Shown here piece after piece: positions 2 to 12,288 of a stretch of 64,000 nt of DNA (position 1 is its first letter; every line of letters begins with the position of its first letter). This stretch comes from Myxococcota bacterium (GTDB lineage: Bacteria > Myxococcota_A > UBA9160 > SMWR01), in contig DATBRV010000011.1 in the NCBI GenBank assembly GCA_036560145.1, positions 15,930-79,929 on the forward strand, in the 5' to 3' direction. The position numbers and the translations under genes were made by a program. The notes beneath the pieces were generated by a model. That model had not been told where the DNA came from, did no database searches, and saw nothing but the letters and a program-made list of their open reading frames with translations.

Positions 2-835
2 GAGCTGCGATATTGGCTCGCCGCCTGGGACGTCGCGCCGGAGCGCGACGTCCGCCTGCTCGTGGTCCCGCCGCCGCGCATGGTGGCGGAGCTCGAAGCC
101 GGCCGGATCGATGCCTTCTGCGTCGGCGAGCCGTGGAACAGCGTGGCTGCGCAGCACGGCAGTGGCACGATTCTCCTCACAGGCCACGAGATTTGGAGTC
201 ACGCCCCCGAGAAGGTGCTCGCGGTCTCCTACGACTGGGCAAGGCGGCATCGGGGCACGCACCGCGCGCTCCTGCGCGCGATCCTCGAGGCCGCGCGCTG
301 GTGCGACGACCCGGAGAACCAGCGCGATCTCGCGCACCGGCTTTCCGCCGGCGGCTACGTCGACGTGCCGGAGGACGCGCTGACGCCGGCTCTCGTCGGC
401 CCCCTGCGCACGGCAAGAGCCACATCCCAACCAGTGATGCCGGCGTTCTACGACTTCCACCGATTCGCGGCCGGCTTTCCCTGGCGCTCGCACGCCGCGT
501 GGATCATCACGCAGATGCTGCGCTGGGGTCAGATCGAAAAGCCGGTGGACGTACGGGCCGTGGCCGCCGCCGTGTATCGGAGTGATCTGCATCGCGAGGC
601 GGCCGAGGATCTGGGGCTTGCCTGCCCGACGCGAGACGAGAAGTCGGAAGGCGCGCACGCGGCGCCCTGGACGCTCGAGACGACGGGGGCGCCGATCGAC
701 ATGCCGCCGGACCGGTTTCTCGATGGCCGCGTCTTCGATCCGTTCGACGTCCCCGGCTACCTCACGGGCTTCTCGCAACACGAGTTGCGCGTTCCGCTCG
801 ACGAGCTGGCAGCCGCCCAAGGCCATCGCGGCTGA
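2..835 (+). CDS. nasS: NrtA-fold nitrate-binding protein, C-terminal 277 aa (5' end cut by window edge); probably the cytoplasmic nitrate/nitrite sensor NasS
   Basis: Frame 2 is open from base 2. The translation [35 protein letters not shown] parallels motifs of the downstream NrtA paralog ([25 protein letters not shown]). The gene lies directly upstream of an ANTAR-type leader, the usual nasT-nasS position. Confidence 0.6.
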   Translation, partial: ELRYWLAAWDVAPERDVRLLVVPPPRMVAELEAGRIDAFCVGEPWNSVAAQHGSGTILLTGHEIWSHAPEKVLAVSYDWARRHRGTHRALLRAILEAARWCDDPENQRDLAHRLSAGGYVDVPEDALTPALVGPLRTARATSQPVMPAFYDFHRFAAGFPWRSHAAWIITQMLRWGQIEKPVDVRAVAAAVYRSDLHREAAEDLGLACPTRDEKSEGAHAAPWTLETTGAPIDMPPDRFLDGRVFDPFDVPGYLTGFSQHELRVPLDELAAAQGHRG

Positions 836-1001
836 TCCCGAATCGGGCAGCGCGTGCGCACGCCGTGGGCACCTGCGCGTGCATCGGCACGCATCCGTTC
901 CCCGAGACCGTCGGAGAGCGCGCGCATGGTTGGCACGCTCCGTGAATGGGACGTTCGGCGGGCCTTCCCAACGACGCGGCGGCCCACCACGGGATTGAAG
1001 C

Positions 1002-1040
1002 GCGGATCAGTGGAGATCCGCTTGCGGACAAAGGCGTCCG
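1002..1040 (+). promoter_or_regulatory. Dual hexaloop hairpins in the nrtA leader RNA, matching the ANTAR (NasT-type) antiterminator target
   Basis: P1 is GCGGATC-AGTGGA-GATCCGC (1002-1021). P2 is CGGAC-AAAGGC-GTCCG (1025-1040). Both loops are 6 nt with A at position 1 and G at position 4, and the linker is 3 nt. The P2 3' arm is shared with the terminator stem. Confidence 0.6.
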
Positions 1041-1087
1041 ACCGAGCGCGGGAGTCGCGCTCGGCCGGGCGTCTTCGTTTTTGGGGG
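1036..1087 (+). terminator. Intrinsic terminator (attenuator) in the nrtA leader
   Basis: The stem pairs 1036-1050 with 1056-1070 (core CCGAGCGCG/CGCGCTCGG, one A.C mismatch, one G.U). The loop is GGAGT, followed by GTCTTCGTTTTTGGGGG. It ends 9 nt before the nrtA ATG. Confidence 0.6.
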
Positions 1088-1095
1088 TTCGAGGG

Positions 1096-2436
1096 ATGGG
1101 TGCAAGGCGGTCGCTCGCGCGACTCGGCTCGGCGTTGCTCGTCGCGGCTCTCCTGGGATCGGCGGCGCCTGCCGCGGCCGTGCCTCCCGAAAAGGACGAG
1201 CTCAAGCTCGGATTCATCAAGCTCACCGACTGCGCCCCCCTCGTCATCGCGAAAGAGCTCGGGTTCTTCGAAGAGGAGGATCTCTACGTCACACTCGAGG
1301 CGCAGGCCAATTGGAAGATCCTTCTCGACCGTGTGATCTCGGGCGAGCTCGACGGGGCCCACATGCTCGCCGGCCAGCCGATCGGAGCGACGATCGGAGT
1401 CGGGACGAAGGCCCCCGTCGTCACCGCGTTCAGCATGGACCTGAACGGGAACGCGATCACCGTATCGAACGCGATCTGGAAGCGGATGCAGGCGGCGGAC
1501 CCGAAGCTGGCCGGGCCAAGACCGTCGCATCCGGTCTCCGCCAGGGCGCTCGTGCCCATCGTGGAGGAGTTCAAGGCAAAGGGCGAGCCCATGCGCATGG
1601 GCGTGGTCTTTCCGCTCTCCACCCACAACTACGAACTCCGTTACTGGCTCGCGGCCGCCGGCATCAAGCCGGGTTTCTATACGAACGGCGACTCGACCGG
1701 GACGCGGGATGCCGACGTCCTGATCTCGGTCACGCCGCCCCCGCAAATGCCCAGCACGCTCGAGCAAGGGACCATCCAGGGCTATTGCGTCGGCGAGCCC
1801 TGGAACCAGCAGGCTGTCTTCAAGGGGATCGGTGTTCCGATCATCACCGACCTCGAGATCTGGAAGAACAATCCGGAAAAAGTCTTCGGCGTGACGGCGG
1901 GGTGGGCGCAGCAGCATCCCGAGACCCACGTTCGCGTCGTCAAAGCGCTGATCCGCGCCGGCCAGTGGCTGGACGCGAGCCCCGCGAATCGCAAGAAGGC
2001 GGTCGAGATCCTGGCGCGACCCGAATACGTCGGAGCAGACGCCGCGGTGATCGCGAACAGCATGACGGGATACTTCGAGTACGAAAAGGGCGATCGGCGC
2101 GAGATGCCCGACTTCAATGTCTTCTTCCGCTACTTCGCCACCTATCCGTACTACAGCGACGGCGTCTGGTACCTCACCCAGATGCGGCGCTGGGGTCAGA
2201 TCCCCGAGCCGAAGCCCGACGCCTGGTTCGACGCGACGATCCGCTCCGTCTACCTCCCCGCCGTCTGGCGCCAGGCCGCGGAACGCCTCGTCGCCGAGCA
2301 ACATCTGGCGCCCGCGGATCTGCCTGCGACCGACGGCTACAAACCGCCGGACTCCGGCTTCATCGACGGCGTCCCCTACGACGGACGCAAGCCCAACGCG
2401 TACCTGCGCTCGCTCGCGATCGGCCTGAAGGACTGA
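1096..2436 (+). CDS. nrtA: Nitrate ABC transporter substrate-binding protein (NrtA/CmpA family)
   Basis: ATG at 1096 gives a signal peptide [28 protein letters not shown]. The mature part starts [24 protein letters not shown] and carries [12 protein letters not shown] and GYCVGEPWN, typical NrtA motifs. Confidence 0.9.
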
Positions 2437-2449
2437 CCAGGAGGCTGCG

Positions 2450-3373
2450 ATGCTCGACGTTCGACAGCTGCTCCGCACGATTGGCGCTCCCGTGATGGCG
2501 CTCGCGCTCTTCGTCGCGCTGTGGTCCGCGGCGGCGGCGCGCATCGAGACGAGCATCGGCGCTCTGCCCGGGCCCGGGCAGGTCTTGCTCGCGGCGCGTG
2601 GGCTCGTGGCCGAGCATCGGGCGGAGCGCGCGCGAGAGGGCGAATTCACGACCCGGATGGAGGTGAAGAGGCGCGCCGCGCTCGCCGCGGGCGAGCCATG
2701 GCGGGATCGCCAATATGCCGGCAAACCCACCTATTTCGACCAGATCGCGACGAGCCTCGCGACCGTGTTCACCGGATTCCTGATCGCCTCGCTCGTCGCG
2801 GTTCCGCTCGGCGTGCTGTGTGGCACCAGTCCGACCGTCTACGCGGCGCTCAATCCGCTGATCCAGCTCTTCCGCCCGGTCTCACCGCTCGCCTGGCTCC
2901 CGATCGTCATGATCCTCGTGAGCGCGCTCTACACGAGCACGGATCCCCTCTTCGAGAAGTCGTTCCTGTCCTCGGCGATCACCGTCGCGCTCTGCTCGCT
3001 CTGGCCGACGCTCGTGAACACCGCTCTCGGTGTCGCCTCCGTCGATCCGGACCACCTGAACGTGGCGCGCGTGCTGCGTCTGCCGTGGTACGTGCGTGTG
3101 CGCAAGATCGTGATTCCGTCCTCGTTGCCCTGGATCTTCACGGGATTGCGCCTCTCGCTCGGTGTCGGCTGGATGGTGTTGATCGCGGCGGAGATGCTCG
3201 CGCAGAACCCGGGCCTCGGGAAGTTCGTGTGGGACATGTTCCAGAACGGCAGCAGCGAGACTCTCGCCCAGATCATGGTCGCCGTTTTCACGATCGGGGG
3301 GATCGGGTACGCGCTCGACCGGGGCATGATTGCGCTGCAACGGGCGGTGAGCCATGACGTCCGTGCGACCTGA
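2450..3373 (+). CDS. nrtB: Nitrate ABC transporter permease (NrtB, NitT/TauT family)
   Basis: Multi-TM protein with a long N-terminal loop and a BPD-type permease core (..[23 protein letters not shown].. [17 protein letters not shown]). Confidence 0.9.
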
Positions 3374-4193
3374 GGAGATCCGCAGCGGCGCGCGGCCCGC
3401 GGCGCTCGCCCTGCGCGGCGTCGCGAAGGGCTTCGGCCCGCGCGGGCGTCGCAGCGAGGTGCTGGCCGGCGTCGAGTTCGAGCTTGCGCCGGGCGAGTGT
3501 GTCGCGGTGCTCGGCTTCTCGGGGAGCGGGAAGACGACGCTGCTCTCGATCCTGGCGGGCCTTCTCCCGCCGGACGCGGGCTCCGTCGAGATGGACGGCG
3601 CGCCGGCTCCGCCCGCGGGCCCCGAACGCGGTGTCGTCTTTCAGAGCTACGCGCTGCTTCCCTGGCTCACGGTCGCGGGCAACGTGCAGCTCGCGGTCGA
3701 CGCCGTCCACCCGGAGCTCGGCCGGCGCGCCCGGCGCGCGCGCACGCTCGAGCTCGTGCGCGTCGTCGGTCTCGAGGCGGCGCTCGAGAAGCGTCCACGC
3801 GAGCTCTCCGGAGGCATGCGACAACGGGTGGCGGTCGCACGCGCGCTCGCGCTGGAGCCGCGAATCCTGCTGCTCGACGAGCCGCTCGGCGCGGTCGACG
3901 CGCTGACGCGCAGCTCGCTTCAGGCCGAGTTCGCGCGTCTCTTCGAGCGCTCGCACAAGAGCGTCGTCCTCGTCACCAACGACGTCGACGAAGCCATTCT
4001 GCTCGCGGACCGCATCGTGCCGCTGACGCCCGGGCCTCGTGCGACGCTCGGCGCCTCGTTTCGCGTCGCGCTCGCGCGCCCGCGCGATCGCACCTGGTTG
4101 AATCGCGACCCCGCCTTCAAGAAGCTGCGAAACGAGATCACGACCCATCTGCTCGAGCTCTCCGCGCGGCGTCCAGGCAGGGCGCGCCGATGA
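3354..4193 (+). CDS. ABC transporter ATP-binding protein (nitrate/sulfonate/bicarbonate type), first of two
   Basis: Walker [10 protein letters not shown], signature [15 protein letters not shown], Walker B LLLDEP. Overlaps the nrtB end by 20 nt. Confidence 0.9.
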
Positions 4194-5023
4194 GCGCCTA
4201 CCTCGAGCTGTTCGCGCTCGCCAAGGACTTCGATGGTCCCCAGGGGCGCACGCGCGTCGTGGAAGGCTTCGACATCGCACTCGCGCGCGGGGAGTTCGTG
4301 TGCCTGCTCGGCCACTCGGGCTGCGGGAAGTCGACCGTGCTCTCGATGGTCGCGGGCCTCACGGGGATCTCGTCCGGCGGCGTCGTGCTCGACGGCCGCG
4401 AGATCGACGGACCCGGGCCCGATCGCGGCGTGGTCTTCCAGTCGCCGAGCCTGCTGCCGTGGCTGACGGCGCTCGCCAACGTCCGGCTCGGCGTGGACCG
4501 CGTGTTTGCGGACCGCAGCGAGGCCGAGCGGCGCGCGATCGCTGCGGAAACGCTCGAGCGGGTGGGCCTCGGCGACGCGCTCGACCGGCGACCCGACGAG
4601 CTGTCGCAGGGCGAATGTCAGCGCGTGGGAATCGCGCGGGCCTTTGCGCTCGCGCCGAAGCTGCTGCTGCTCGACGAGCCGTTCGGGATGCTCGACTCGC
4701 TGACGCGCATGGAGCTTCAGGAGGTGCTGCTCGAGCTCTGGAGCCACGATCGCAAGACGGCGCTGATGGTCACCCACGACGTGGACGAAGCCCTCTACCT
4801 ATCGGATCGGATCGCGCTGATGACCAAGGGACCGAAGGCCCGGATCGGCGAGATCGTGGAAGTCGGTTTCCCGCGACCGCGCGAGCGCAGCGCCGTGCTC
4901 GAGCACCCGGACTACTACCAGCTCCGTGAACGCCTGCTGGATTTCCTCGAAGAGCAGGACGCGCGGCCCGAAGCCGAGCTGGTGAGCGACGCCGTCACCG
5001 GGCTCGGGGGAGTCGCCGCATGA
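4190..5023 (+). CDS. ABC transporter ATP-binding protein (NrtD-like), second of two
   Basis: An internal ATG at 4190 overlaps the previous stop (ATGA). Walker A GHSGCGKST, signature LSQGECQRVGIARAF, Walker B LLLDEP. Confidence 0.9.
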   Translation: MSAYLELFALAKDFDGPQGRTRVVEGFDIALARGEFVCLLGHSGCGKSTVLSMVAGLTGISSGGVVLDGREIDGPGPDRGVVFQSPSLLPWLTALANVRLGVDRVFADRSEAERRAIAAETLERVGLGDALDRRPDELSQGECQRVGIARAFALAPKLLLLDEPFGMLDSLTRMELQEVLLELWSHDRKTALMVTHDVDEALYLSDRIALMTKGPKARIGEIVEVGFPRPRERSAVLEHPDYYQLRERLLDFLEEQDARPEAELVSDAVTGLGGVAA

Positions 5024-7113
5024 GCGAAGCGTTGCGCGAGACCCGGAGCGTCTGCAGCTTCTGCGGCGTCGGATGCGGCGTGATCGTGACTTCGCAGGGT
5101 GACCGGATGGTCGGCGTGCGCGGCGACCCCGACCACCCGGCGAACCGCGGGGCGCTGTGCACGAAGGGCCTCGCGCTGCACGAGATGGTGTCCGGGGACG
5201 ATCGCCTCCGGGCGCCGCTCGGCCGCCGTGTCAAAGGCGGTCCGCTCGAGCGCCTCTCGTGGGAAGCGGCGGAGGATCGGCTCGCCGGCGCGCTGCGGGA
5301 GGCGCTGCGCGCGCGCGGCCCCGACGCCATCGGACTCTACCTCTCGGGCCAGCTTCTCACCGAGGACTATTACGCGCTCAACAAGCTCGCGAAGGGCTTC
5401 CTCGGCACGAACCACGTCGATTCGAATTCGCGGCTCTGCATGTCGAGCGCTGTGTCGGCGTATCAGCGCGCGTTCGGCGTCGACGGACCGCCGACCTGCT
5501 ACGAGGACCTCGACCACGCGGATCTCTACCTCGTGGTGGGTGCCAACATGGCGTGGTGCCACCCCGTGCTGTTTCGCCGGCTCGAGACGGCGCGCGCGTC
5601 GCGACGGCCAGCGCCGCGCCTGATCGTGCTCGATCCGCGTCGCACCGCCACGGCCGGCGTGGCTGATCTCCACGTCGCGCTGCGTCCCGGGAGCGACGGC
5701 GTCTTCCTCACGGCGGTGCTCGCCGAGCTCTGGCGGCGGGGCCGTCTGGACGACGCGTATGTCGACGCGCACACGGAGAATTTCGAAGCGCTCGAAGCCG
5801 TGCTCCCGGACTTCGGGCCGGAGCGTGTCGAGCGAGATTGCGGGATCTCGCAAGCGACGCTCGCATCCGTCGTCGACTGGTGGGCCGATGCGGGCGCAGC
5901 CCTCTCGCTCTGGGCGATGGGCGTGAACCAGAGCGCGCACGGAACGGACACGGCGAACGCGCTCATCAACCTGCACCTCGCCAGCGGCCAGATCGGTCGA
6001 CCCGGATCCGGCCCGTTCTCGCTCACCGGTCAGCCGAACGCGATGGGCGGGCGCGAGGTCGGGGCGATGGCGACCATGCTCTCCGCGCACCGCGACCTCG
6101 CTTCGGAGCGCGATCGCCTCGACCTCGCGTCGTTCTGGGGGAGCGGACCGATCGGCGCCACGCCAGGTCGGACCGCCGTCGAGCTGTTCGATCACGCGGC
6201 CGACGGCGGCCTGGACGTGCTCTGGATCGTCGCCACCAATCCGGCCGTGACGCTCCCCGACCAGGCGAGCGTTCGCCGCGCGCTCGAGCGCACACCGCTG
6301 GTGGTGCTCCAGGACGTGGTCGGCGGCACCGACACCGCGCGCTACGCCGATCTCCTGCTTCCGGCTGCCGGCTGGGGCGAGAAGTCGGGGACGATGACGA
6401 ACAGTGAACGCTGCGTCTCGCGGCTGAACGCGGCGGTGCCGCCGCCCGGCGAGGCGCGTCCGGATTGGATGATCGCGGCGGCGATCGCGGCGCGCATGGG
6501 CTTTGGGCACGCCTTCGCGTGGCGCAGCGAGACCGATATCTGGCGCGAACACACCGCGACCACCGCCGGGCGCGACTGCGACATGCTTGGCATGACCGCG
6601 GAGCGCCTGGCTTCCTCGCCGCTGCGCTGGCCGTGTCCCGACGCGTCGCACCCGGGGACGCTGCGGCTCTACGGGGACGGGCGCTTCCAGACCCCGAGCG
6701 GACGCGCCCGTTTCGTGGTCCCGCGCCGCCTGCGCGTGGCGGAGGCGCCTTCGGCCGGCACGCCGATCGCGCTGACGACCGGACGCGTTCGCGACCAGTG
6801 GCACACCATGACGAAGACCGGCCGCGTTGCGCGCCTGCTCGGCCACTCTCCCGTGCCGGAGATCGAACTGTCGCCCGCGGACGCGGCCCGGCTCGGCATC
6901 GGAGACGGGGACCTCGTGCGGGTCACGGCGTCTCGCGGCGGCTTCACGATGCCGGCGCGCATCACGGACGCCTTGCCGGAGGGTGTCGCGTTCGCGCCGA
7001 TGCACTGGAGCGATGCCACCGCCGAGGATGCTCTCGTGAACGGCGCGCTCGCCCCACAGATCGACCCGCACTCGAAGCAGCCCGAGCTCAAGCACGTTCC
7101 GGTGCGCGTCGAA
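5020..7113 (+). other. nasA: NasA module: molybdopterin (bis-MGD) assimilatory nitrate reductase
   Basis: N-terminal 4Fe-4S motif CSFCGVGCG..C, followed by LCTKG, YLSGQLLTEDYYALNKLAKGFLGTNHVDSNSRLCMSS and a C-terminal beta-barrel segment (GDLVRVTASRGGF..APMHW). Confidence 0.9.
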
Positions 7114-10100
7114 CGCCTCGCCGGGAAGGCTGCGCCGGCCGGCGACACGGCCGGCGCGCGCACCCTGTGCGTCTGTCGCGAAGTGACGTTCGACTCGGTG
7201 CAGACCGCCCTCGCGCAGGGCGCGGCGGGCGTCGGATCCGTCGGTCGCCGGACGGGCGCCGGAATGGGTTGCGGCTCGTGCGTCCCGGAGATCGCGGGGC
7301 TGCTCCGCCGCGCACCGGCCGCGCCCGGGCGCGAGCGGCTCGTCGTGATCGGAAACGGAATGGTCGGCCACCGCTTCGTCGAGTCTCTGGTCGAGCACGG
7401 CGGGGCGGAGCGCTACCAGGTCGTCGTGCTCGGCGAAGAGCCGCGCCCGGCCTACGACCGGGTGCACCTCTCGGATCTCTTCTCGGGCCGGACGCCAGCG
7501 GATCTCGCGCTCGCCTGCGCGGAGGAATATCTGGCGGACGGCGTCGAGCTTCGGGTCGGCGCGCGCGTCATGGCGATCGATCGCGACGACCGGAGCGTCC
7601 TCACCAGCGACGGCGAGCGCATCCCGTACGACGCGCTCGTACTGGCAACCGGCTCCTCGCCCTTCGTGCCGCCCATTCCGGGAACCGAGAAGCGCGGCGT
7701 CTTCGTCTACCGCACGATCGAGGACGTCGAAGCGATCCGCGCTGCCGCTGCCGGGGCGCGCACCGGCATCGTGATCGGCGGGGGGCTGCTCGGGCTCGAG
7801 GCGGCGAAGGCGTTGCGCGACCTCGGCCTCGAGACGCACGTGGTCGAGGCGGCGGCCCGGCTGATGCCCCGCCAGCTCGACGCCGCGGGCTCGGCCGCGC
7901 TCGTGCGGCGCATCGAGGCGCTGGGCGTTCGCGTCCATCTCGCCACGGCGATCGAGCAGGTGCTCGGCGACGACAGGGCGACCGGCCTGCTCCTCGCGGG
8001 CCGCAAGCAGCTCGCGGCCGAGCTGATCGCGATCTCGGCCGGCATCCGACCCCGCGACGAGCTGGCGGTCGCTTGCGGCCTCGCGCGCGCCGAGCGCGGC
8101 GGCGTCGCGGTGGACGACGAGCTGCGCACCAGTGACCCGCGCATCTTCGCGATCGGGGAGGTCGCTTCGCACCGCGGCATGGTCTACGGGCTGGCCGCTC
8201 CTGGCTACGCGATGGCCGACACGCTTGCGTGGAATTTCGCCTCGGAGCCAGCCGCCGAGGCGCGGCGCTTCGAAGGCGCCGACCTCTCCACGCAGCTCAA
8301 GCTCCTGGGCGTCGACGTGGCGAGCCTCGGCGACCCGTTCGCGGGTGGCGAGAGCGCGACGGCGGTCGTGTTCCAGGACCTGCGGCGCGATCGCTACGCG
8401 AAGCTCGTGATCTCGGACGACGGCCGCCGGCTCGCCGGCGGCATCCTGGTCGGCGACGTGAGCCAGTACGCGCGCCTGCTCCAGCTCGCGCGCGAGGGCC
8501 GGGAGCTTCCCGAGAGCACGGACGAGCTCCTCTTCGGAACCCGCGCGAGCGAAGCGGTGGACGCGAGCGACGCAGCTCAGGTCTGTTCCTGCAACAACGT
8601 GAGCCGCGGCTCCCTGCGCGGCGCGATCCGCGAGAACGCGCTCGACACGATTGCGGCGGTCAAGAAGGCGACCAAGGCGGGCACGGGCTGCGGGGGATGC
8701 CTGCCGATCGTGACGCAGATCCTGAACGCGGAGCTCGCGGCGGCCGGGCGGGCCGGAGAAAACCACCTTTGCGAGCACTTCGCCTACACGCGGCAGGAGC
8801 TCTTCCAGATCGTGAAGATCACGGGTAGCCGAAGCTTCGAGGCACTGCTCGCGAGCCACGGGCGCGGCGCGGGCTGCGAGATCTGCAAGCCGGCAGTGGC
8901 GTCGATTCTCGCGAGCTTGTGGAACGAGCCGATTCTCGGCCAGGATACGATCCAGGACAGCAACGACCGCTTCCTCGGGAACATCCAGCGCGGCGGCACC
9001 TACTCCGTCGTCCCTCGCGTCCCGGGTGGCGAGATCACCCCCGAAAAGCTCGTCGTGCTCGGGCAGGTGGCCAGCAGGTTCAGCCTCTACTGCAAGATCA
9101 CCGGCGGCCAGCGCATCGACCTGCTCGGCGCGCGCGTCGAGCAGCTCCCCGACATCTGGAAGGAGCTGGTCGAGGCGGGCTTCGAGAGCGGCCACGCCTA
9201 CGGCAAGGCCATGCGAACCGTCAAGAGTTGCGTCGGCACGACCTGGTGTCGCTACGGCGTTCAGGACTCGACCGGTCTCGCGATCCGCATCGAGGAGCGA
9301 TACCGGGGCATCCGCGCGCCGCACAAGCTCAAGGCTGCCGTCTCCGGCTGCATCCGCGAGTGTGCGGAGGCGCAAAGCAAGGACTTCGGCGTGATCGCGA
9401 CCGAGCGCGGCTGGAACCTCTACGTGTGCGGGAACGGCGGGTCGAAGCCCCGCCATGCGGAGCTTCTCGCCGCGGATCTCGACGAGCCGACGCTGGTTCG
9501 CTTCATCGACCGCTTCCTCATGTACTACATCCAGACGGCGGATCGATTGACGCGCACCGCGCGTTGGCTCGAGACGCTGCCAGGCGGAGTCGACTACCTG
9601 CGCAAGGTCGTGGTCGACGATCACCTCGGTGTGGCCGCGGAGCTGGAGAGCCAGGTGCAGCATCTCGTCGACACCTACGCGTGCGAGTGGAAGCAGGTCG
9701 TCGAGAGCCCGGAGCTCCAGAAGCGCTTCCGTCATTTTGCGAACGCGAGCGAGCCCGACGACACGCTGAGCTTCGTCGAGGAGCGAGGCCAGCGGCGCCC
9801 GGCCGACTGGGCGAAGCCGGTTGCGTGTGCCCCGCCCGACCCCGAAGCGCTTGCAGAAGACTCCAGCTGGGTGCCGCTCGCCTCGGTGGACGAGGTGCCG
9901 GCCGACGGCGGCGTCGCCGTGCGCTACGGCGACGTCCAGCTCGCCGTCTTCCACGTGGCCGCGCACGACGCCTGGTACGCCACCCAGAACCGCTGCCCCC
10001 ACACGGGGGACATGGTGCTGGGCCGCGGCATCGTGGGAGATCAGGGCGGCCGAGCCAAGGTCGCCTGTCCGCAGCACAAGAAGACGTTCGATCTGGAGAC

Positions 10101-11625
10101 CGGCTCGGGGCTCTCCGATCCGGAGTACTGCATCGCGACGTTCCCGGTGAACGTCGAGGAGGGAAAGGTGTACGTCAAGCTGCCGCCCGCGACGGTGCTG
10201 GCCCGGCTGCTCACCAGCGCCGCCTGCCTGCTCCTGCTGCTGCTCGCTCCCGGCGCCGGTCGCGCCGAGGATGGGGACGGCTTCTTCGCGTCGCCCTCGC
10301 TCTACTGGCAGTCGGGCGACCATCGGATCGACCTCGGCGCGAGCGTCCGCGCCCGCGGCGAGGGCTGGGACGCCTTCGCCGACGACACCGATTGGTACTC
10401 GGGGATCCGCACGCGCGTCCGCATGCAGTACGCCTTCAAGGAGAGGTTCATCGTCGCAGGCGAGTTCCAGGACGTGCGCCTCAACAGCATGAACGCGAAC
10501 GGCACGGGCGCGCTCGCGAATTATCGCAACGCGAACAAGGGCGGGGACAGCGCCCACGGCGACGACCTGCGCTCGCTCTACGTCGAAGGCCGGCTCCCGG
10601 ATTGGGGCTTCCTGCGCGTCGGGCGCCAGGATGTGAAGCTCGGACAGGAGGTGCTCTACCCGGAGCCCAACTGGCGCTATCTCAAGATGGCGCGCCTGGG
10701 CGAGCGGCTGGTCGGGACCGTCGGCTGGAGCCACGTCGAGCGCGCCTACGACGGCTTCGCGGGCGCCATCGAGCGCGGCGGCGTGCAGCTCTACGGCTTC
10801 GGCGCGCGGCCCACGACCGGCGTCTTCGAGGCCGAGGATGCGTACTCGGACTTCAGCGACATCACCGTCGGCGGCGCGACGCTCACCGTGAAGCGCGGCA
10901 CGCTGCTCGAGGCGAGCGAGATCGGCGTCTTCGGGCTCGGCTACCACGACGACCGGTCGATCTCGGGCGGCGGTCTTCCGGGCGACGTCGAGATCGGAAC
11001 CTTCGGCGCGCACTGGCTCGGCGTCTACCCGCTCGGCCCCGGCAACGCGGACGTACTCCTATGGGGCGCCGGTCAGTTCGGCGAATACAACGGGCTCGAC
11101 CATGCGGCGGGCGCCGGAATCGTCGAGGTCGGCTACCAGCTCCCGAATCTCTTCGCGAAGCCGTGGTTGCGCCTCGGCGTAAACGTCGCCTCCGGCGACG
11201 GCGACTCCGGCGACGGAGACCACACGACGTTCTTCAACATGCTCCCCACCAACCATCTCTACTACGGCTTCGCCGATCAGCTCTCGTTCCAGAATCTGAC
11301 GAACCCATTCGTGCAGCTCCGGCTGGCGCCGCACCCGATGCTCGCGATCAACTTCTTCGTACACTGGTTCGAGCTCACGAACTCGAACGACATGCGCTAT
11401 GCCGGGACCGGCGCGTATGACAAGTCCAGCTTCGGGTTCCCGGCGTTCCCGTCGGGCGGGCGCCACCACGTCGGCGTCGAGTACGACGTGGTCGCGACCT
11501 TCACACCGCACCGGACCACGACGATCGAGGTCGGCTTCTCGCACCTCGACGGGGGCGCCATGTTCAGCGCAGCCCCGTCGCGCGACGTCCAGTTCATCTA
11601 CACGTCGCTCGAGCTTCGCTACTGA
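5020..11625 (+). CDS. Stop-free 2,201-codon ORF: assimilatory nitrate reductase (NasA), BFD [2Fe-2S] domain, NAD(P)H nitrite reductase large subunit (NirB), Rieske small subunit (NirD), then a signal peptide and alginate-export-type beta-barrel porin
   Basis: A single frame runs from ATG 5020 (overlapping the previous stop) to TGA 11625 with no in-frame stop. Module-by-module motifs are given in the sub-features below. Confidence 0.85.
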   Translation: MSEALRETRSVCSFCGVGCGVIVTSQGDRMVGVRGDPDHPANRGALCTKGLALHEMVSGDDRLRAPLGRRVKGGPLERLSWEAAEDRLAGALREALRARGPDAIGLYLSGQLLTEDYYALNKLAKGFLGTNHVDSNSRLCMSSAVSAYQRAFGVDGPPTCYEDLDHADLYLVVGANMAWCHPVLFRRLETARASRRPAPRLIVLDPRRTATAGVADLHVALRPGSDGVFLTAVLAELWRRGRLDDAYVDAHTENFEALEAVLPDFGPERVERDCGISQATLASVVDWWADAGAALSLWAMGVNQSAHGTDTANALINLHLASGQIGRPGSGPFSLTGQPNAMGGREVGAMATMLSAHRDLASERDRLDLASFWGSGPIGATPGRTAVELFDHAADGGLDVLWIVATNPAVTLPDQASVRRALERTPLVVLQDVVGGTDTARYADLLLPAAGWGEKSGTMTNSERCVSRLNAAVPPPGEARPDWMIAAAIAARMGFGHAFAWRSETDIWREHTATTAGRDCDMLGMTAERLASSPLRWPCPDASHPGTLRLYGDGRFQTPSGRARFVVPRRLRVAEAPSAGTPIALTTGRVRDQWHTMTKTGRVARLLGHSPVPEIELSPADAARLGIGDGDLVRVTASRGGFTMPARITDALPEGVAFAPMHWSDATAEDALVNGALAPQIDPHSKQPELKHVPVRVERLAGKAAPAGDTAGARTLCVCREVTFDSVQTALAQGAAGVGSVGRRTGAGMGCGSCVPEIAGLLRRAPAAPGRERLVVIGNGMVGHRFVESLVEHGGAERYQVVVLGEEPRPAYDRVHLSDLFSGRTPADLALACAEEYLADGVELRVGARVMAIDRDDRSVLTSDGERIPYDALVLATGSSPFVPPIPGTEKRGVFVYRTIEDVEAIRAAAAGARTGIVIGGGLLGLEAAKALRDLGLETHVVEAAARLMPRQLDAAGSAALVRRIEALGVRVHLATAIEQVLGDDRATGLLLAGRKQLAAELIAISAGIRPRDELAVACGLARAERGGVAVDDELRTSDPRIFAIGEVASHRGMVYGLAAPGYAMADTLAWNFASEPAAEARRFEGADLSTQLKLLGVDVASLGDPFAGGESATAVVFQDLRRDRYAKLVISDDGRRLAGGILVGDVSQYARLLQLAREGRELPESTDELLFGTRASEAVDASDAAQVCSCNNVSRGSLRGAIRENALDTIAAVKKATKAGTGCGGCLPIVTQILNAELAAAGRAGENHLCEHFAYTRQELFQIVKITGSRSFEALLASHGRGAGCEICKPAVASILASLWNEPILGQDTIQDSNDRFLGNIQRGGTYSVVPRVPGGEITPEKLVVLGQVASRFSLYCKITGGQRIDLLGARVEQLPDIWKELVEAGFESGHAYGKAMRTVKSCVGTTWCRYGVQDSTGLAIRIEERYRGIRAPHKLKAAVSGCIRECAEAQSKDFGVIATERGWNLYVCGNGGSKPRHAELLAADLDEPTLVRFIDRFLMYYIQTADRLTRTARWLETLPGGVDYLRKVVVDDHLGVAAELESQVQHLVDTYACEWKQVVESPELQKRFRHFANASEPDDTLSFVEERGQRRPADWAKPVACAPPDPEALAEDSSWVPLASVDEVPADGGVAVRYGDVQLAVFHVAAHDAWYATQNRCPHTGDMVLGRGIVGDQGGRAKVACPQHKKTFDLETGSGLSDPEYCIATFPVNVEEGKVYVKLPPATVLARLLTSAACLLLLLLAPGAGRAEDGDGFFASPSLYWQSGDHRIDLGASVRARGEGWDAFADDTDWYSGIRTRVRMQYAFKERFIVAGEFQDVRLNSMNANGTGALANYRNANKGGDSAHGDDLRSLYVEGRLPDWGFLRVGRQDVKLGQEVLYPEPNWRYLKMARLGERLVGTVGWSHVERAYDGFAGAIERGGVQLYGFGARPTTGVFEAEDAYSDFSDITVGGATLTVKRGTLLEASEIGVFGLGYHDDRSISGGGLPGDVEIGTFGAHWLGVYPLGPGNADVLLWGAGQFGEYNGLDHAAGAGIVEVGYQLPNLFAKPWLRLGVNVASGDGDSGDGDHTTFFNMLPTNHLYYGFADQLSFQNLTNPFVQLRLAPHPMLAINFFVHWFELTNSNDMRYAGTGAYDKSSFGFPAFPSGGRHHVGVEYDVVATFTPHRTTTIEVGFSHLDGGAMFSAAPSRDVQFIYTSLELRY
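7162..7306 (+). other. BFD-like [2Fe-2S] domain linking the NasA and NirB modules
   Basis: TLCVCREVTFDSV...GAGMGCGSCVPEI shows the CxC...CxxC pattern. Confidence 0.8.
7336..9810 (+). other. nirB: NirB module: FAD/NAD(P)H, 2Fe-2S and siroheme-4Fe-4S nitrite reductase large subunit
   Basis: RLVVIGNGMVGHRF, EEPRPAYDRVHLS, YRTIEDVEAI, ICSCNNVSRG, KAGTGCGGCLP, CVGTTWCRYG and SGCIRECAEAQ are near-colinear with E. coli NirB as I remember it. No start codon precedes the Rossmann fold. Confidence 0.9.
9865..10182 (+). other. nirD: NirD module: Rieske-type nitrite reductase small subunit
   Basis: SWVPLASVDEVPADGGVAVRYGDVQLAVFH..NRCPHTGDMVLGRGIVGD..VACPQHKKTFDLETG..VEEGKVYVKL. It joins NirB through a Pro/Ala linker with no stop or start codon. 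Confidence 0.85.
10195..11625 (+). CDS. Alginate-export-family outer-membrane porin, a possible independent translation unit from an internal GTG (alternative GTG at 10168 behind GAGGAGGGA)
   Basis: GTG 10195 would give M-LARLLTSAACLLLLLLAPGAGRA/EDG, a canonical signal peptide. The body has alternating beta-strand character and the C-terminal residue is aromatic (..SLELRY), as in OMP beta-signals. Confidence 0.6.
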   Translation: MLARLLTSAACLLLLLLAPGAGRAEDGDGFFASPSLYWQSGDHRIDLGASVRARGEGWDAFADDTDWYSGIRTRVRMQYAFKERFIVAGEFQDVRLNSMNANGTGALANYRNANKGGDSAHGDDLRSLYVEGRLPDWGFLRVGRQDVKLGQEVLYPEPNWRYLKMARLGERLVGTVGWSHVERAYDGFAGAIERGGVQLYGFGARPTTGVFEAEDAYSDFSDITVGGATLTVKRGTLLEASEIGVFGLGYHDDRSISGGGLPGDVEIGTFGAHWLGVYPLGPGNADVLLWGAGQFGEYNGLDHAAGAGIVEVGYQLPNLFAKPWLRLGVNVASGDGDSGDGDHTTFFNMLPTNHLYYGFADQLSFQNLTNPFVQLRLAPHPMLAINFFVHWFELTNSNDMRYAGTGAYDKSSFGFPAFPSGGRHHVGVEYDVVATFTPHRTTTIEVGFSHLDGGAMFSAAPSRDVQFIYTSLELRY

Positions 11626-11664
11626 GGCAGAACCGGTGCGCGCCTTCCGCCGGAGTTCCGAGGT

Positions 11665-12288
11665 TCACGGCAGATAGGTTCCCAGGTAGCCCTTCACGAG
11701 GCGCTGGGTCTCCTCGACCAGCGCCTCGAAGTCGGGGCGCTCGTCGACCAGCGCGCGGTCCTGGAGCGCGTTGCCGGCCGTCACCACGGTGCGGCAGATC
11801 TCGAGCGCCTTGGCGCGCGAGATCCCGGCGCGGCCGAAGGCCGGATGCAGCGACATCAGGTCCGCGACGCGCTCGTTCGAGGCCGCCGTGACCTCCGCGA
11901 ACTCGGCCGTGAAGCGGATCGTGCGGAGCAGGGTCCGGTAGTCGGGCGACGCGCCGAAGAAGCCGACGGTCGCGCTCACGGTGCGGTCCACCGCCTCGCG
12001 CCAGGCAAGCCCCCGGCATTCGGCGAGCTGGCGCGCGGTCTCGCTGTCGGCTTCGTCCATCACGGTCTCGGCCACCGCGAGCAGCAGCGCGTTCTTGCTC
12101 GAGAAATACTGATAGACGGAGCCCACAGGAACGCCGGCGCGCTCCGCGATTCCCTCGATCGTGATCTCGGCGACCGGCTGCGCCTCCAGCTCGCGGCGGG
12201 CCGCGTCGAGGATCCGCTCGACCCGCTCGCGCGCGCGCGCCTGCTTGGGGATCCGCCGCCGCGGGCCCTCGGTGTCCGGTGCGCTCAC
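11665..12288 (-). CDS. TetR/AcrR family transcriptional regulator
   Basis: N-terminal HTH segment ERILDAARRELEAQPVAEITIEGIAERAGVPVGSVYQYFSSKNALL. GTG start at 12288. Confidence 0.9.
   Translation of the reverse strand: MSAPDTEGPRRRIPKQARARERVERILDAARRELEAQPVAEITIEGIAERAGVPVGSVYQYFSSKNALLLAVAETVMDEADSETARQLAECRGLAWREAVDRTVSATVGFFGASPDYRTLLRTIRFTAEFAEVTAASNERVADLMSLHPAFGRAGISRAKALEICRTVVTAGNALQDRALVDERPDFEALVEETQRLVKGYLGTYLP

Follow-up and report, generated by a model that had tools for sequence, protein, structure and literature searches.

An assimilatory nitrate/nitrite reductase gene joined in frame to an outer-membrane porin gene in uncultured bacteria, and a possible splitting of its product at an internal signal peptide

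Can a single reading frame without an internal stop serve a cytoplasmic reductase and an outer-membrane porin at the same time? This question is raised by a stretch of 64,000 nucleotides from a Myxococcota bacterium (contig DATBRV010000011.1, positions 15,930 to 79,929; the whole stretch is called the window below). In frame 1 of its plus strand, an open reading frame (ORF) of 2201 codons is free of stops from the ATG at 5020 to the TGA at 11623-11625. The ORF (5020..11625) encodes, in this order, a NasA-like module, NirB, NirD, a signal peptide and a complete AlgE-like 18-strand porin. The original prediction, made from the letters of the window, had noticed that no stop separates NirD from the porin, and this was borne out. 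Comparison with related loci indicates that the fusion of the genes for a cytoplasmic reductase and an outer-membrane porin is real and is inherited in several uncultured bacterial lineages. We consider it an even call that genes which were once coupled have been fused in frame and that the one ORF now gives rise to two mature proteins, one in the cytoplasm and one in the outer membrane. The parts of the ORF, all on the plus strand, are as follows.

5020..7119, plus strand: molybdopterin nitrate-reductase module (NasA/NasC-like), aa 1-700; Pfam Molybdop_Fe4S4, Molybdopterin and Molydop_binding
7333..9813, plus strand: NirB module, aa 772-1598, full length; TIGR02374 at 1025 bits (cut-off 578), NF011565 at 1112 bits (cut-off 883)
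9865..10182, plus strand: NirD core, aa 1616-1721, ending ..VEEGKVYVKL; TIGR02378 and Pfam Rieske_2
10158..10170, plus strand: candidate internal porin start; GGAGG at 10158-10162, a 5-nt spacer and GTG at 10168-10170; precursor MYVKLPPATVLARLL..
10183..10206, plus strand: PPATVLAR, apparent remnant of a clade-specific NirD C-terminal tail (LPPxxxLARxL in unfused NirDs), now the charged N-region of the signal peptide
10207..10266, plus strand: hydrophobic core and cleavage region of the signal peptide, LLTSAACLLLLLLAPGAGRA; from sequence and a helix at residues 10-24 of an AlphaFold2 (AF2) model
10267..11622, plus strand: mature outer-membrane beta-barrel porin, Alginate_exp, C-terminal Tyr, followed by TGA at 11623-11625; Pfam profile, AF2 and Foldseek

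NirD was matched over its full length by the equivalog profile TIGR02378 (1-105 of 105, 104.8 bits against a cut-off of 74.65) and by Pfam Rieske_2 (1-104 of 104). Assignment of the first module to NasA/NasC is suggested by domain-level Pfam matches and operon context, the NCBIfam equivalog profiles staying under their cut-offs (NF041323, 485 against 1000 bits; NF047855, 448 against 1100 bits).

Both generic NirD profiles terminate at ..VYVKL (nucleotide 10182). The original prediction had taken this point for the natural C terminus of the protein; it is the end of the generic profiles but not of NirD in this clade. Unfused NirDs run past VYVKL with LPPxxxLARxLG, often followed by a Cys-rich stretch, for a total of 10-30 residues (L011, 3767-3856; L015, 4875-4964; L044; L088, about 5945-6016; C terminus of protein P0137), and the tail residues LPP, L112 and L116 are invariant in the NirD of seven relatives. 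The Cys-rich part (e.g. GC..GC....CG) is absent from several relatives and from all fused forms. Because LPPxxxLARxL is conserved in unfused NirD proteins, PPATVLAR in the window can be read as a reused piece of this tail.

Behind the NirD core, the frame continues as PPATVLARLLTSAACLLLLLLAPGAGRA/EDGDGFF (the slash marks the putative cleavage site), followed by the full Alginate_exp domain and the end ..LELRY. The porin part possesses a signal peptide of n-h-c layout, the sequence G-R-A/E and a C-terminal aromatic residue (..LELRY), and its signal peptide is internal to the ORF. What had been described as a textbook signal peptide does have this layout, but its N-region is the NirD tail. Judged from its sequence, it is a hybrid, with the charged N-region coming from the NirD tail and the core plus cleavage region from a porin signal peptide. 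The putative signal-peptidase I site lies between 10266 and 10267; it was called by eye from the sequence. On inspection, the small-x-small site of the window, R-LLTSAACLLLLLLA-PGAGRA/E, has equivalents in L007, L001 and L008, and the cleavage region APGAxRA is common to the signal peptides of the stand-alone homologues P0005 and P0216. The fused signal peptides had hydrophobic cores that exceeded those of their unfused counterparts in length and hydrophobicity, in a small sample of related sequences.

For the first 300 nt beyond the junction, all frames lack a stop. The next stops are found at 10490 (frame 2, 308 nt away) and at 11418 (frame 3, 1236 nt away), so that the earlier statement that no alternative-frame stop rescues the junction holds. 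The elements placed around the junction by the original prediction are also where it had put them (GTG at 10168 and at 10195, GAGGAGGGA at 10156-10164, AAG at 10177 and a frame-2 stop at 10148-10150). As an in-frame stop is missing and the other frames stay open for 308 and 1236 nt, every ribosome that finishes NirD has to continue into the porin. An Rfam scan of the junction revealed no element, the sole match being a sub-threshold snoRNA, and a scan limited to sigma-70 type promoters found neither an internal promoter of this type nor a terminator in 9500-11900.

A long open frame alone says little in DNA of 70% G+C. On the minus strand of the window, at 4915-11013, an antisense ORF of 2032 codons is equally free of stops; it is not a gene and is to be expected from the G+C content and codon bias. 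The part of the observation that is not random is the recurrence of the stop-less, same-frame junction in further distinct sequences. Relatives were found by a metagenome scan with a NirD alignment and tblastn, after which frames were walked locus by locus. A metagenome clade in which nirD is directly followed by this porin falls into two groups, fused and unfused. The stop-less junction was present in five further distinct sequences (L007, L001, L004/5/6 and L008/L009), which come from different metagenome projects and are 78-91% identical to the window at the DNA level.

L007: fused, no stop; identity to the window 94% (NirD) and 87% (porin)
L001: fused, no stop; identity to the window 89% (NirD) and 81% (porin)
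L004 = L005 = L021, and L006: fused, no stop; identity to the window 81% (NirD) and 85% (porin)
L008 / L009: fused, no stop; identity to the window 90% (NirD) and 70% (porin)
L010, L011/13, L012, L014, L015, L017, L018/19, L044 and L088: unfused; lower identity to the window

L008 and L009 are near-identical contigs out of two different samples. The records L004, L005/L021 and L006 could be assemblies of one sample. The closest database protein, P0001 (contig L001), is 81% identical over the query and crosses the junction without a stop (..VYVKLPPATALARLL..). The comparison of junctions had been proposed together with the original prediction, and it separated fused relatives, which lack the stop, from unfused ones, which differ by about 76-80 nt. 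A homology search with a short junction query among 150 candidates added little. The named homologues come from metagenome-assembled genomes (MAGs) of Myxococcota.

The ORF of the window is intact over 6.6 kb with full-length profile matches per module, and the sequences of L007 and L008/9 are likewise uninterrupted. Among the fused sequences, the ratio of nonsynonymous to synonymous substitution rates (dN/dS) was 0.12-0.24 for NirD; the porin had values of 0.25-0.30, and of 0.42-0.48 in comparisons with L008. As these values indicate, both halves were kept by selection after fusion. The claim that a cofactor-loaded reductase cannot sensibly be fused to a barrel is contradicted by this purifying selection and by a further family of chaperone-porin fusions described below.

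The unfused loci point to the origin of the fusion. DNA was read for eight sequences representing 10 loci (L010, L011/13, L012, L014, L015, L017, L018/19 and L044). In 10 of 10, the nirD tail ends in a stop that is overlapped by the ATG or GTG of the porin gene, which lies in another frame and has its own Shine-Dalgarno (SD) sequence. The porin start is situated 4-16 nt before the end of the nirD stop, and a GGAGG-like motif lies inside the nirD tail. L088 has the same layout with an overlap of 16 nt, and gene coordinates alone gave overlaps of 11 nt for the contigs of P0137 and P0002. A scan of GTDB genomes retrieved L003 as sole relative, a locus with many frameshifts and of hint value only. 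It originates from a MAG named 'delta proteobacterium' (isolate MFD10007.bin.2.102, assumed to be a long-read assembly) and has the order nirB-nirD-porin at 61-4052; its NirD ends ..GVLTCGAGCD, followed by TGA immediately before the porin. The overlapping layout of the unfused loci would represent the ancestral, translationally coupled state.

The junctions of L011 and L088 are a net 76-80 nt longer than that of the window, and because unfused relatives carry these additional nucleotides the stop was not lost by a point change. In the ancestor, nirD would have been the last module of a NasA-NirB-NirD fusion, with a short tail and a stop, and the porin start would have overlapped it out of frame. 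A net deletion of about 76-80 nt would then have taken the distal tail, the stop, the ribosome-binding site and start codon of the porin and its first residues, joining NirD ..LPPATVLAR straight to the core of the porin signal peptide. Microhomology (LAR or GC repeats) as the cause of the deletion is a guess.

Whether this happened once was addressed by trees. In the NirB/NirD tree, the fused loci formed one clade at only 116 of 200 bootstraps. In the porin tree, L008 grouped with the stand-alone porins P0004, P0006 and P0007 in 298 of 300 replicates, and a clade of all fused porins was recovered in 0 of 300. This conflict implies either two fusions or one fusion followed by recombination. L092 (P0390) was considered as an unfused sister of L008 and rejected, its nirD ending ..LARMLA before a COX2-like gene, i.e. 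a different join or a chimera. Up to ..LARMLA, where the fusion point lies exactly, L092 1-939 matches L008 at 96% identity, and from there on it is unrelated; the contig either is chimeric or records a recombination breakpoint at the junction.

The complete beta-barrel with an aromatic end reported in the original prediction was confirmed. The Alginate_exp profile (PF13372) matched aa 1770-2191 with 106.4 bits against a cut-off of 25.2 and covered profile positions 3-390 of 395, and the protein ends ..LELRY. A search of PDB sequences with the porin gave no match, so a fold search was used. An AF2 model of the C-terminal 485 residues (predicted local distance difference test score 82.6, predicted template modeling score 0.80) showed a signal-peptide helix and a full barrel. 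In Foldseek, the top 17 matches were all AlgE (best 4azl/3rbh; E from 6e-15, about 1e-14; template modeling score 0.57-0.68). The window porin thus resembles AlgE and the Alginate_exp barrels in its Pfam score, well over threshold, and in its best structural matches, whereas it is only 13-15% identical to AlgE, has no alginate genes near it and stands at the end of an operon for nitrate uptake and reduction. An alginate-secretion context was not encountered: the neighbors in the window are nrtABCD-like, nasA/nirBD-like and tetR genes, and porin relatives are located behind nirD or in cytochrome clusters. From this operon context, nitrate or nitrite rather than alginate is the likely substrate. 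Porin homologues with 67-72% identity are found behind genes for a Tll0287-like protein and cytochrome c in L087 (766-3312) and, from gene coordinates only, on the contig of P0004. As these close stand-alone homologues adjoin cytochrome genes instead of nirD, the porin family appears to move between redox operons.

How could two proteins be obtained from the fused ORF? In the read-through chain, the signal peptide is preceded by 1729 residues. By analogy with an N-in/C-out anchor of a membrane protein, the emerging hydrophobic segment LLTSAACLLLLLLA would be taken to SecYEG and the porin part of about 450 residues would be threaded into the periplasm. Signal peptidase I would cut after ..APGAGRA (10266/10267), and the beta-barrel assembly machinery (BAM) would insert the porin into the outer membrane. 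The 1749-residue reductase would stay cytoplasmic, and its C-terminal helix would hold it at the inner membrane beside the NrtABCD importer. Initiation at GGAGG-N5-GTG (10168) would probably add free precursor MYVKLPPATVLARLL.. with the same processing site; read-through with processing and internal initiation are two routes that are not mutually exclusive. The net products would be two, an assimilatory nitrate/nitrite reductase in the cytoplasm and an anion channel in the outer membrane. Splitting of the read-through chain by signal peptidase at an internal signal peptide was missing from the three possibilities listed in the original prediction.

The closest precedent, by analogy, is FbcH of Bradyrhizobium japonicum, for which Thony-Meyer, James and Hennecke are said to have found that one gene yields cytochrome b and cytochrome c1 by splitting at an internal signal peptide. 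In both cases, adjacent operon genes have merged without a stop, the exported downstream partner keeps a signal peptide in the middle of the precursor and two proteins result or would result. As in FbcH, two functional modules lie in one stop-less ORF that is conserved in relatives. The two cases differ in that FbcH has an integral membrane protein as its upstream part and both of its products stay in one inner-membrane complex, whereas the window places a soluble cytoplasmic enzyme of about 185 kDa, rich in cofactors, in front of a protein that would go to the outer membrane. Cleavage has reportedly been demonstrated for FbcH, whereas for the window it is predicted.

A second, unrelated fusion family has the same general layout. 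Protein P0182 (706 aa), one of the more remote homologues of the porin, consists of a TorD/NarJ-like chaperone domain (PF02613), the segment KAKKPRGVLPVLASILFFCLLLLPAWA/Q and an Alginate_exp barrel. The arrangement of chaperone, KKxR-LPVLAxxLL..PAWA/Q and porin is kept down to 55% identity in 18 protein clusters of 703-719 aa, one of them on a 227-kb NCBI contig. The TorD-like-porin ORF is the last gene of a molybdoenzyme operon of the type-II dimethyl sulfoxide reductase-like kind; the operon of P0182 encodes cytochrome b, a multihaem cytochrome c, a 1145-aa molybdoenzyme, an Fe-S subunit and an EB_dh haem subunit. Three such ORFs were read as DNA.

L089, 8001-10121: TorD-like-porin ORF
L090, 8001-10142: TorD-like-porin ORF
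L091, 5083-7197: TorD-like-porin ORF

Judged by the source names of stand-alone homologues, the family probably comes from Acidobacteriota. No Met or Val column is conserved before the signal peptide in the chaperone-porin alignment, and P0274 and P0277 have neither residue within 24-27 residues upstream of it. The conservation of this family shows that a layout of cytoplasmic protein, internal signal peptide and outer-membrane porin is evolutionarily stable and, as far as its sequences indicate, viable. Because an independent family keeps the layout, processing of the full-length chain is favored. We tentatively propose, with a little less than even confidence, a class of cytoplasm-to-outer-membrane polyproteins that are split at an internal signal peptide, leave the cytoplasmic partner tail-anchored, deliver both partners 1:1 and have at least two origins. 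These would be NasA-NirB-NirD-porin, possibly itself twice (L008/9 with another porin lineage, 298 of 300), and TorD-like-chaperone-porin.

Several observations weigh against processing of a read-through chain. Export and cleavage would have to occur at an internal signal peptide preceded by a cofactor-loaded domain of 1720 residues. At -3 of the putative cleavage site, L001 and L004 carry an unfavorable Pro. In 3 of 3 DNA examples of the chaperone-porin family, an in-frame GTG or ATG lacking a clear SD sequence is present 8-17 codons before the hydrophobic core, and because of these codons internal initiation is possible in that family too. Of the unfused relatives, 4 of 10 likewise carry EEGKV together with GGAGG and GTG. 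Furthermore, three fused-type loci (L001, L004-6 and L051) have decayed. At L001 1-4600, nasA and the first approximately 170 nt of nirB are replaced by unrelated DNA, nirB has a 6-nt insertion as well as -1 and -2 deletions 158 nt apart, and a Transposase_20 gene is situated close to the contig start. In L004-6, a remnant copy (L004 1608-3215), homology starts abruptly inside nirD at window position 10012, leaving a truncated nirD, and in the porin gene TGG is changed to TGA at a conserved Trp (L004 1983-1985; window 10393-10395). L051 1642-2600 is a remnant in which window 9330-10066 is joined to 11075-11305, 1008 nt (10067-11074) being deleted; the end of nirB and the first 67 nirD codons are thereby connected to the 3' part of the porin gene. 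L051 comes from the same sample as L007 and L005.

The best surviving alternative, which we regard as possible although doubtful, holds that initiation at GGAGG-N5-GTG (10168) is the sole productive route to the porin and that the read-through tail is never exported and is tolerated or trimmed by proteases. Of the 102 in-frame ATG and GTG codons in the ORF, none but GTG 10168 is preceded by a perfect GGAGG at a distance of 4-9 nt. GGAGG and GTG are identical in 4 of 4 intact fused lineages (window, L007, L001 and L008/9), whereas both are altered in the pseudogene L004, and the site lies at a local minimum of predicted mRNA structure. The product MYVKLPPATVLARLL.. would have a normal n-h-c signal peptide, and nested in-frame starts are well documented in bacteria. 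The first option of the original prediction, a genuine tail combined with internal initiation, is compatible with these findings as far as GTG 10168 is concerned, a good candidate; its second proposed start, GTG 10195 (10195..10197, plus strand), was rejected, the codon not being conserved (GCG in L001, GTC in L007, CGG in L008). As 4 of 10 unfused relatives share the motif, finding it conserved in fused loci does not establish that it is used as a start. The motif seems to have existed beforehand and not to have arisen as an adaptation, and its presence in some unfused relatives could explain why the deletion was tolerated. Exclusive internal initiation would also leave a signal peptide and 450 unfolded barrel residues on each reductase. 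This should be harmful, yet the layout persists to a synonymous divergence (dS) of about 0.5. Nothing in the sequence bars the signal recognition particle or SecA from recognizing the internal signal peptide, and the second fusion family has no conserved start column or clear SD sequence.

It is improbable that the fusion is a tolerated lesion in a decaying locus, with porin expression and/or the reductase crippled and the window as yet undamaged. The degraded state of L001, L004-6 and L051 and the transposase gene near the start of L001 would fit, and no such damage was noticed in the nirD-porin stretches of the unfused loci, the nirB and nasA regions being outside this comparison. Against this stand the intact 6.6-kb ORF of the window, the uninterrupted L007 and L008/9 and the dN/dS values of porin and NirD, from which selection has acted on both parts since fusion.

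We regard it as very improbable that the product stays uncleaved, with the hydrophobic segment as a permanent anchor and a periplasmic porin part that forms no outer-membrane barrel. Windows of 19 residues from the window, L007 and L001 scored near or below zero on the Hessa scale, as transmembrane-competent segments do. However, the porin evolves under constraint and keeps the hallmarks of a BAM substrate (C-terminal aromatic residue, complete AlgE-like barrel), and the small-x-small site after Pro/Gly is conserved. The first barrel strand follows the cleavage region after only about 8 residues, so an uncleaved chain could not span the periplasm and reach the outer membrane.

An assembly or sequencing artefact that turned two ordinary adjacent genes into one by a lost stop or a frameshift, including the point error suggested in the original prediction, is refuted to the extent that we give it hardly any credence, as distinct sequences from independent assemblies and different projects, L008 and L009 among them, share the stop-less architecture at 78-91% DNA identity and stop-bearing relatives differ by about 76-80 nt, not one base. 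Equally little credence is given to an unconventional end of reductase translation at the junction (programmed frameshifting, ribosome drop-off or mRNA cleavage), another option of the original prediction that found no support, the next stops being 308 nt (frame 2) and 1236 nt (frame 3) away and no Rfam match or terminator-like hairpin being seen at the junction, where slippery heptamers were not searched for.

The locus was also compared with other known arrangements. The nirD stop and porin start of the unfused relatives, with an SD sequence in the nirD tail, resemble coupled overlapping gene pairs of the ATGA/GTGA type, whereas the window has lost that stop, SD sequence and start and carries both genes in the same frame. 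Nested in-frame starts yield a second, shorter protein in infB, clpB and cheA of Escherichia coli. The SD sequence and in-frame GTG within a long ORF and a short product that would be a C-terminal subset are common to these genes and the window. The isoforms of infB, clpB and cheA share compartment and fold, whereas the short product of the window would be an exported outer-membrane protein of unrelated function. NirB and NirD are also fused in Klebsiella NasB and fungal NiiA. There, as in the window, NirD is the C-terminal module of NirB, whereas the window clade adds an N-terminal nitrate-reductase module and the NirD tail LPPxxxLARxLG. Literature searches on a link between nirD and porins, on Alginate_exp porins in nitrate clusters and on bacterial internal signal peptides returned nothing relevant, and they turned up no account of an outer-membrane barrel joined to a soluble enzyme of the cytoplasm.

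If the chain is split as proposed, the locus would be a natural bacterial case in which one translation product serves both cytoplasm and outer membrane. FbcH, the single textbook case, would be extended to soluble enzymes and beta-barrels, and Sec and signal peptidase would be able to act behind a very large folded domain. The reductase would be tethered near the ABC importer, and its ratio to the channel in the outer membrane would be fixed, which would achieve substrate channeling by simple means. If internal initiation alone operates, the locus would still be a natural case of a deletion that locked two genes in one frame. For annotation, 'impossible' fusions of this kind should not be corrected automatically as frameshifts. 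In several uncultured phyla, Alginate_exp porins are suggested to be the route by which nitrate, nitrite and related oxyanions enter through the outer membrane.

Throughout the clade, porin-fused or not, NasA, NirB and NirD form a single polypeptide of about 1720-1745 aa. No stops occur at the NasA/NirB or NirB/NirD joins in the window (5020-10182), in L088 (782-6016, 1744 aa) or in P0137 (1737 aa). In the window, the ORF is preceded by genes of an ATP-binding cassette (ABC) transporter. The TGA of the second ATPase gene overlaps the ATG of the 2201-codon ORF (ATGA, 5020-5023), and a convergent regulator gene marks the end of the operon.

946..2436, plus strand: nrtA-like periplasmic nitrate-binding protein, operon gene upstream of the ORF; Pfam NMT1_2, E=1e-94
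2450..3373, plus strand: ABC transporter permease (nrtB-like); Pfam BPD_transp_1
3354..4193, plus strand: ABC transporter ATPase (nrtC/D-like); Pfam ABC_tran
4200..5023, plus strand: second ABC ATPase, start approximate; ABC_tran at aa 257-396 of ORF 3497-5023
11665..12288, minus strand: TetR-family regulator, convergent, at the operon end; Pfam TetR_N and TetR_C_15

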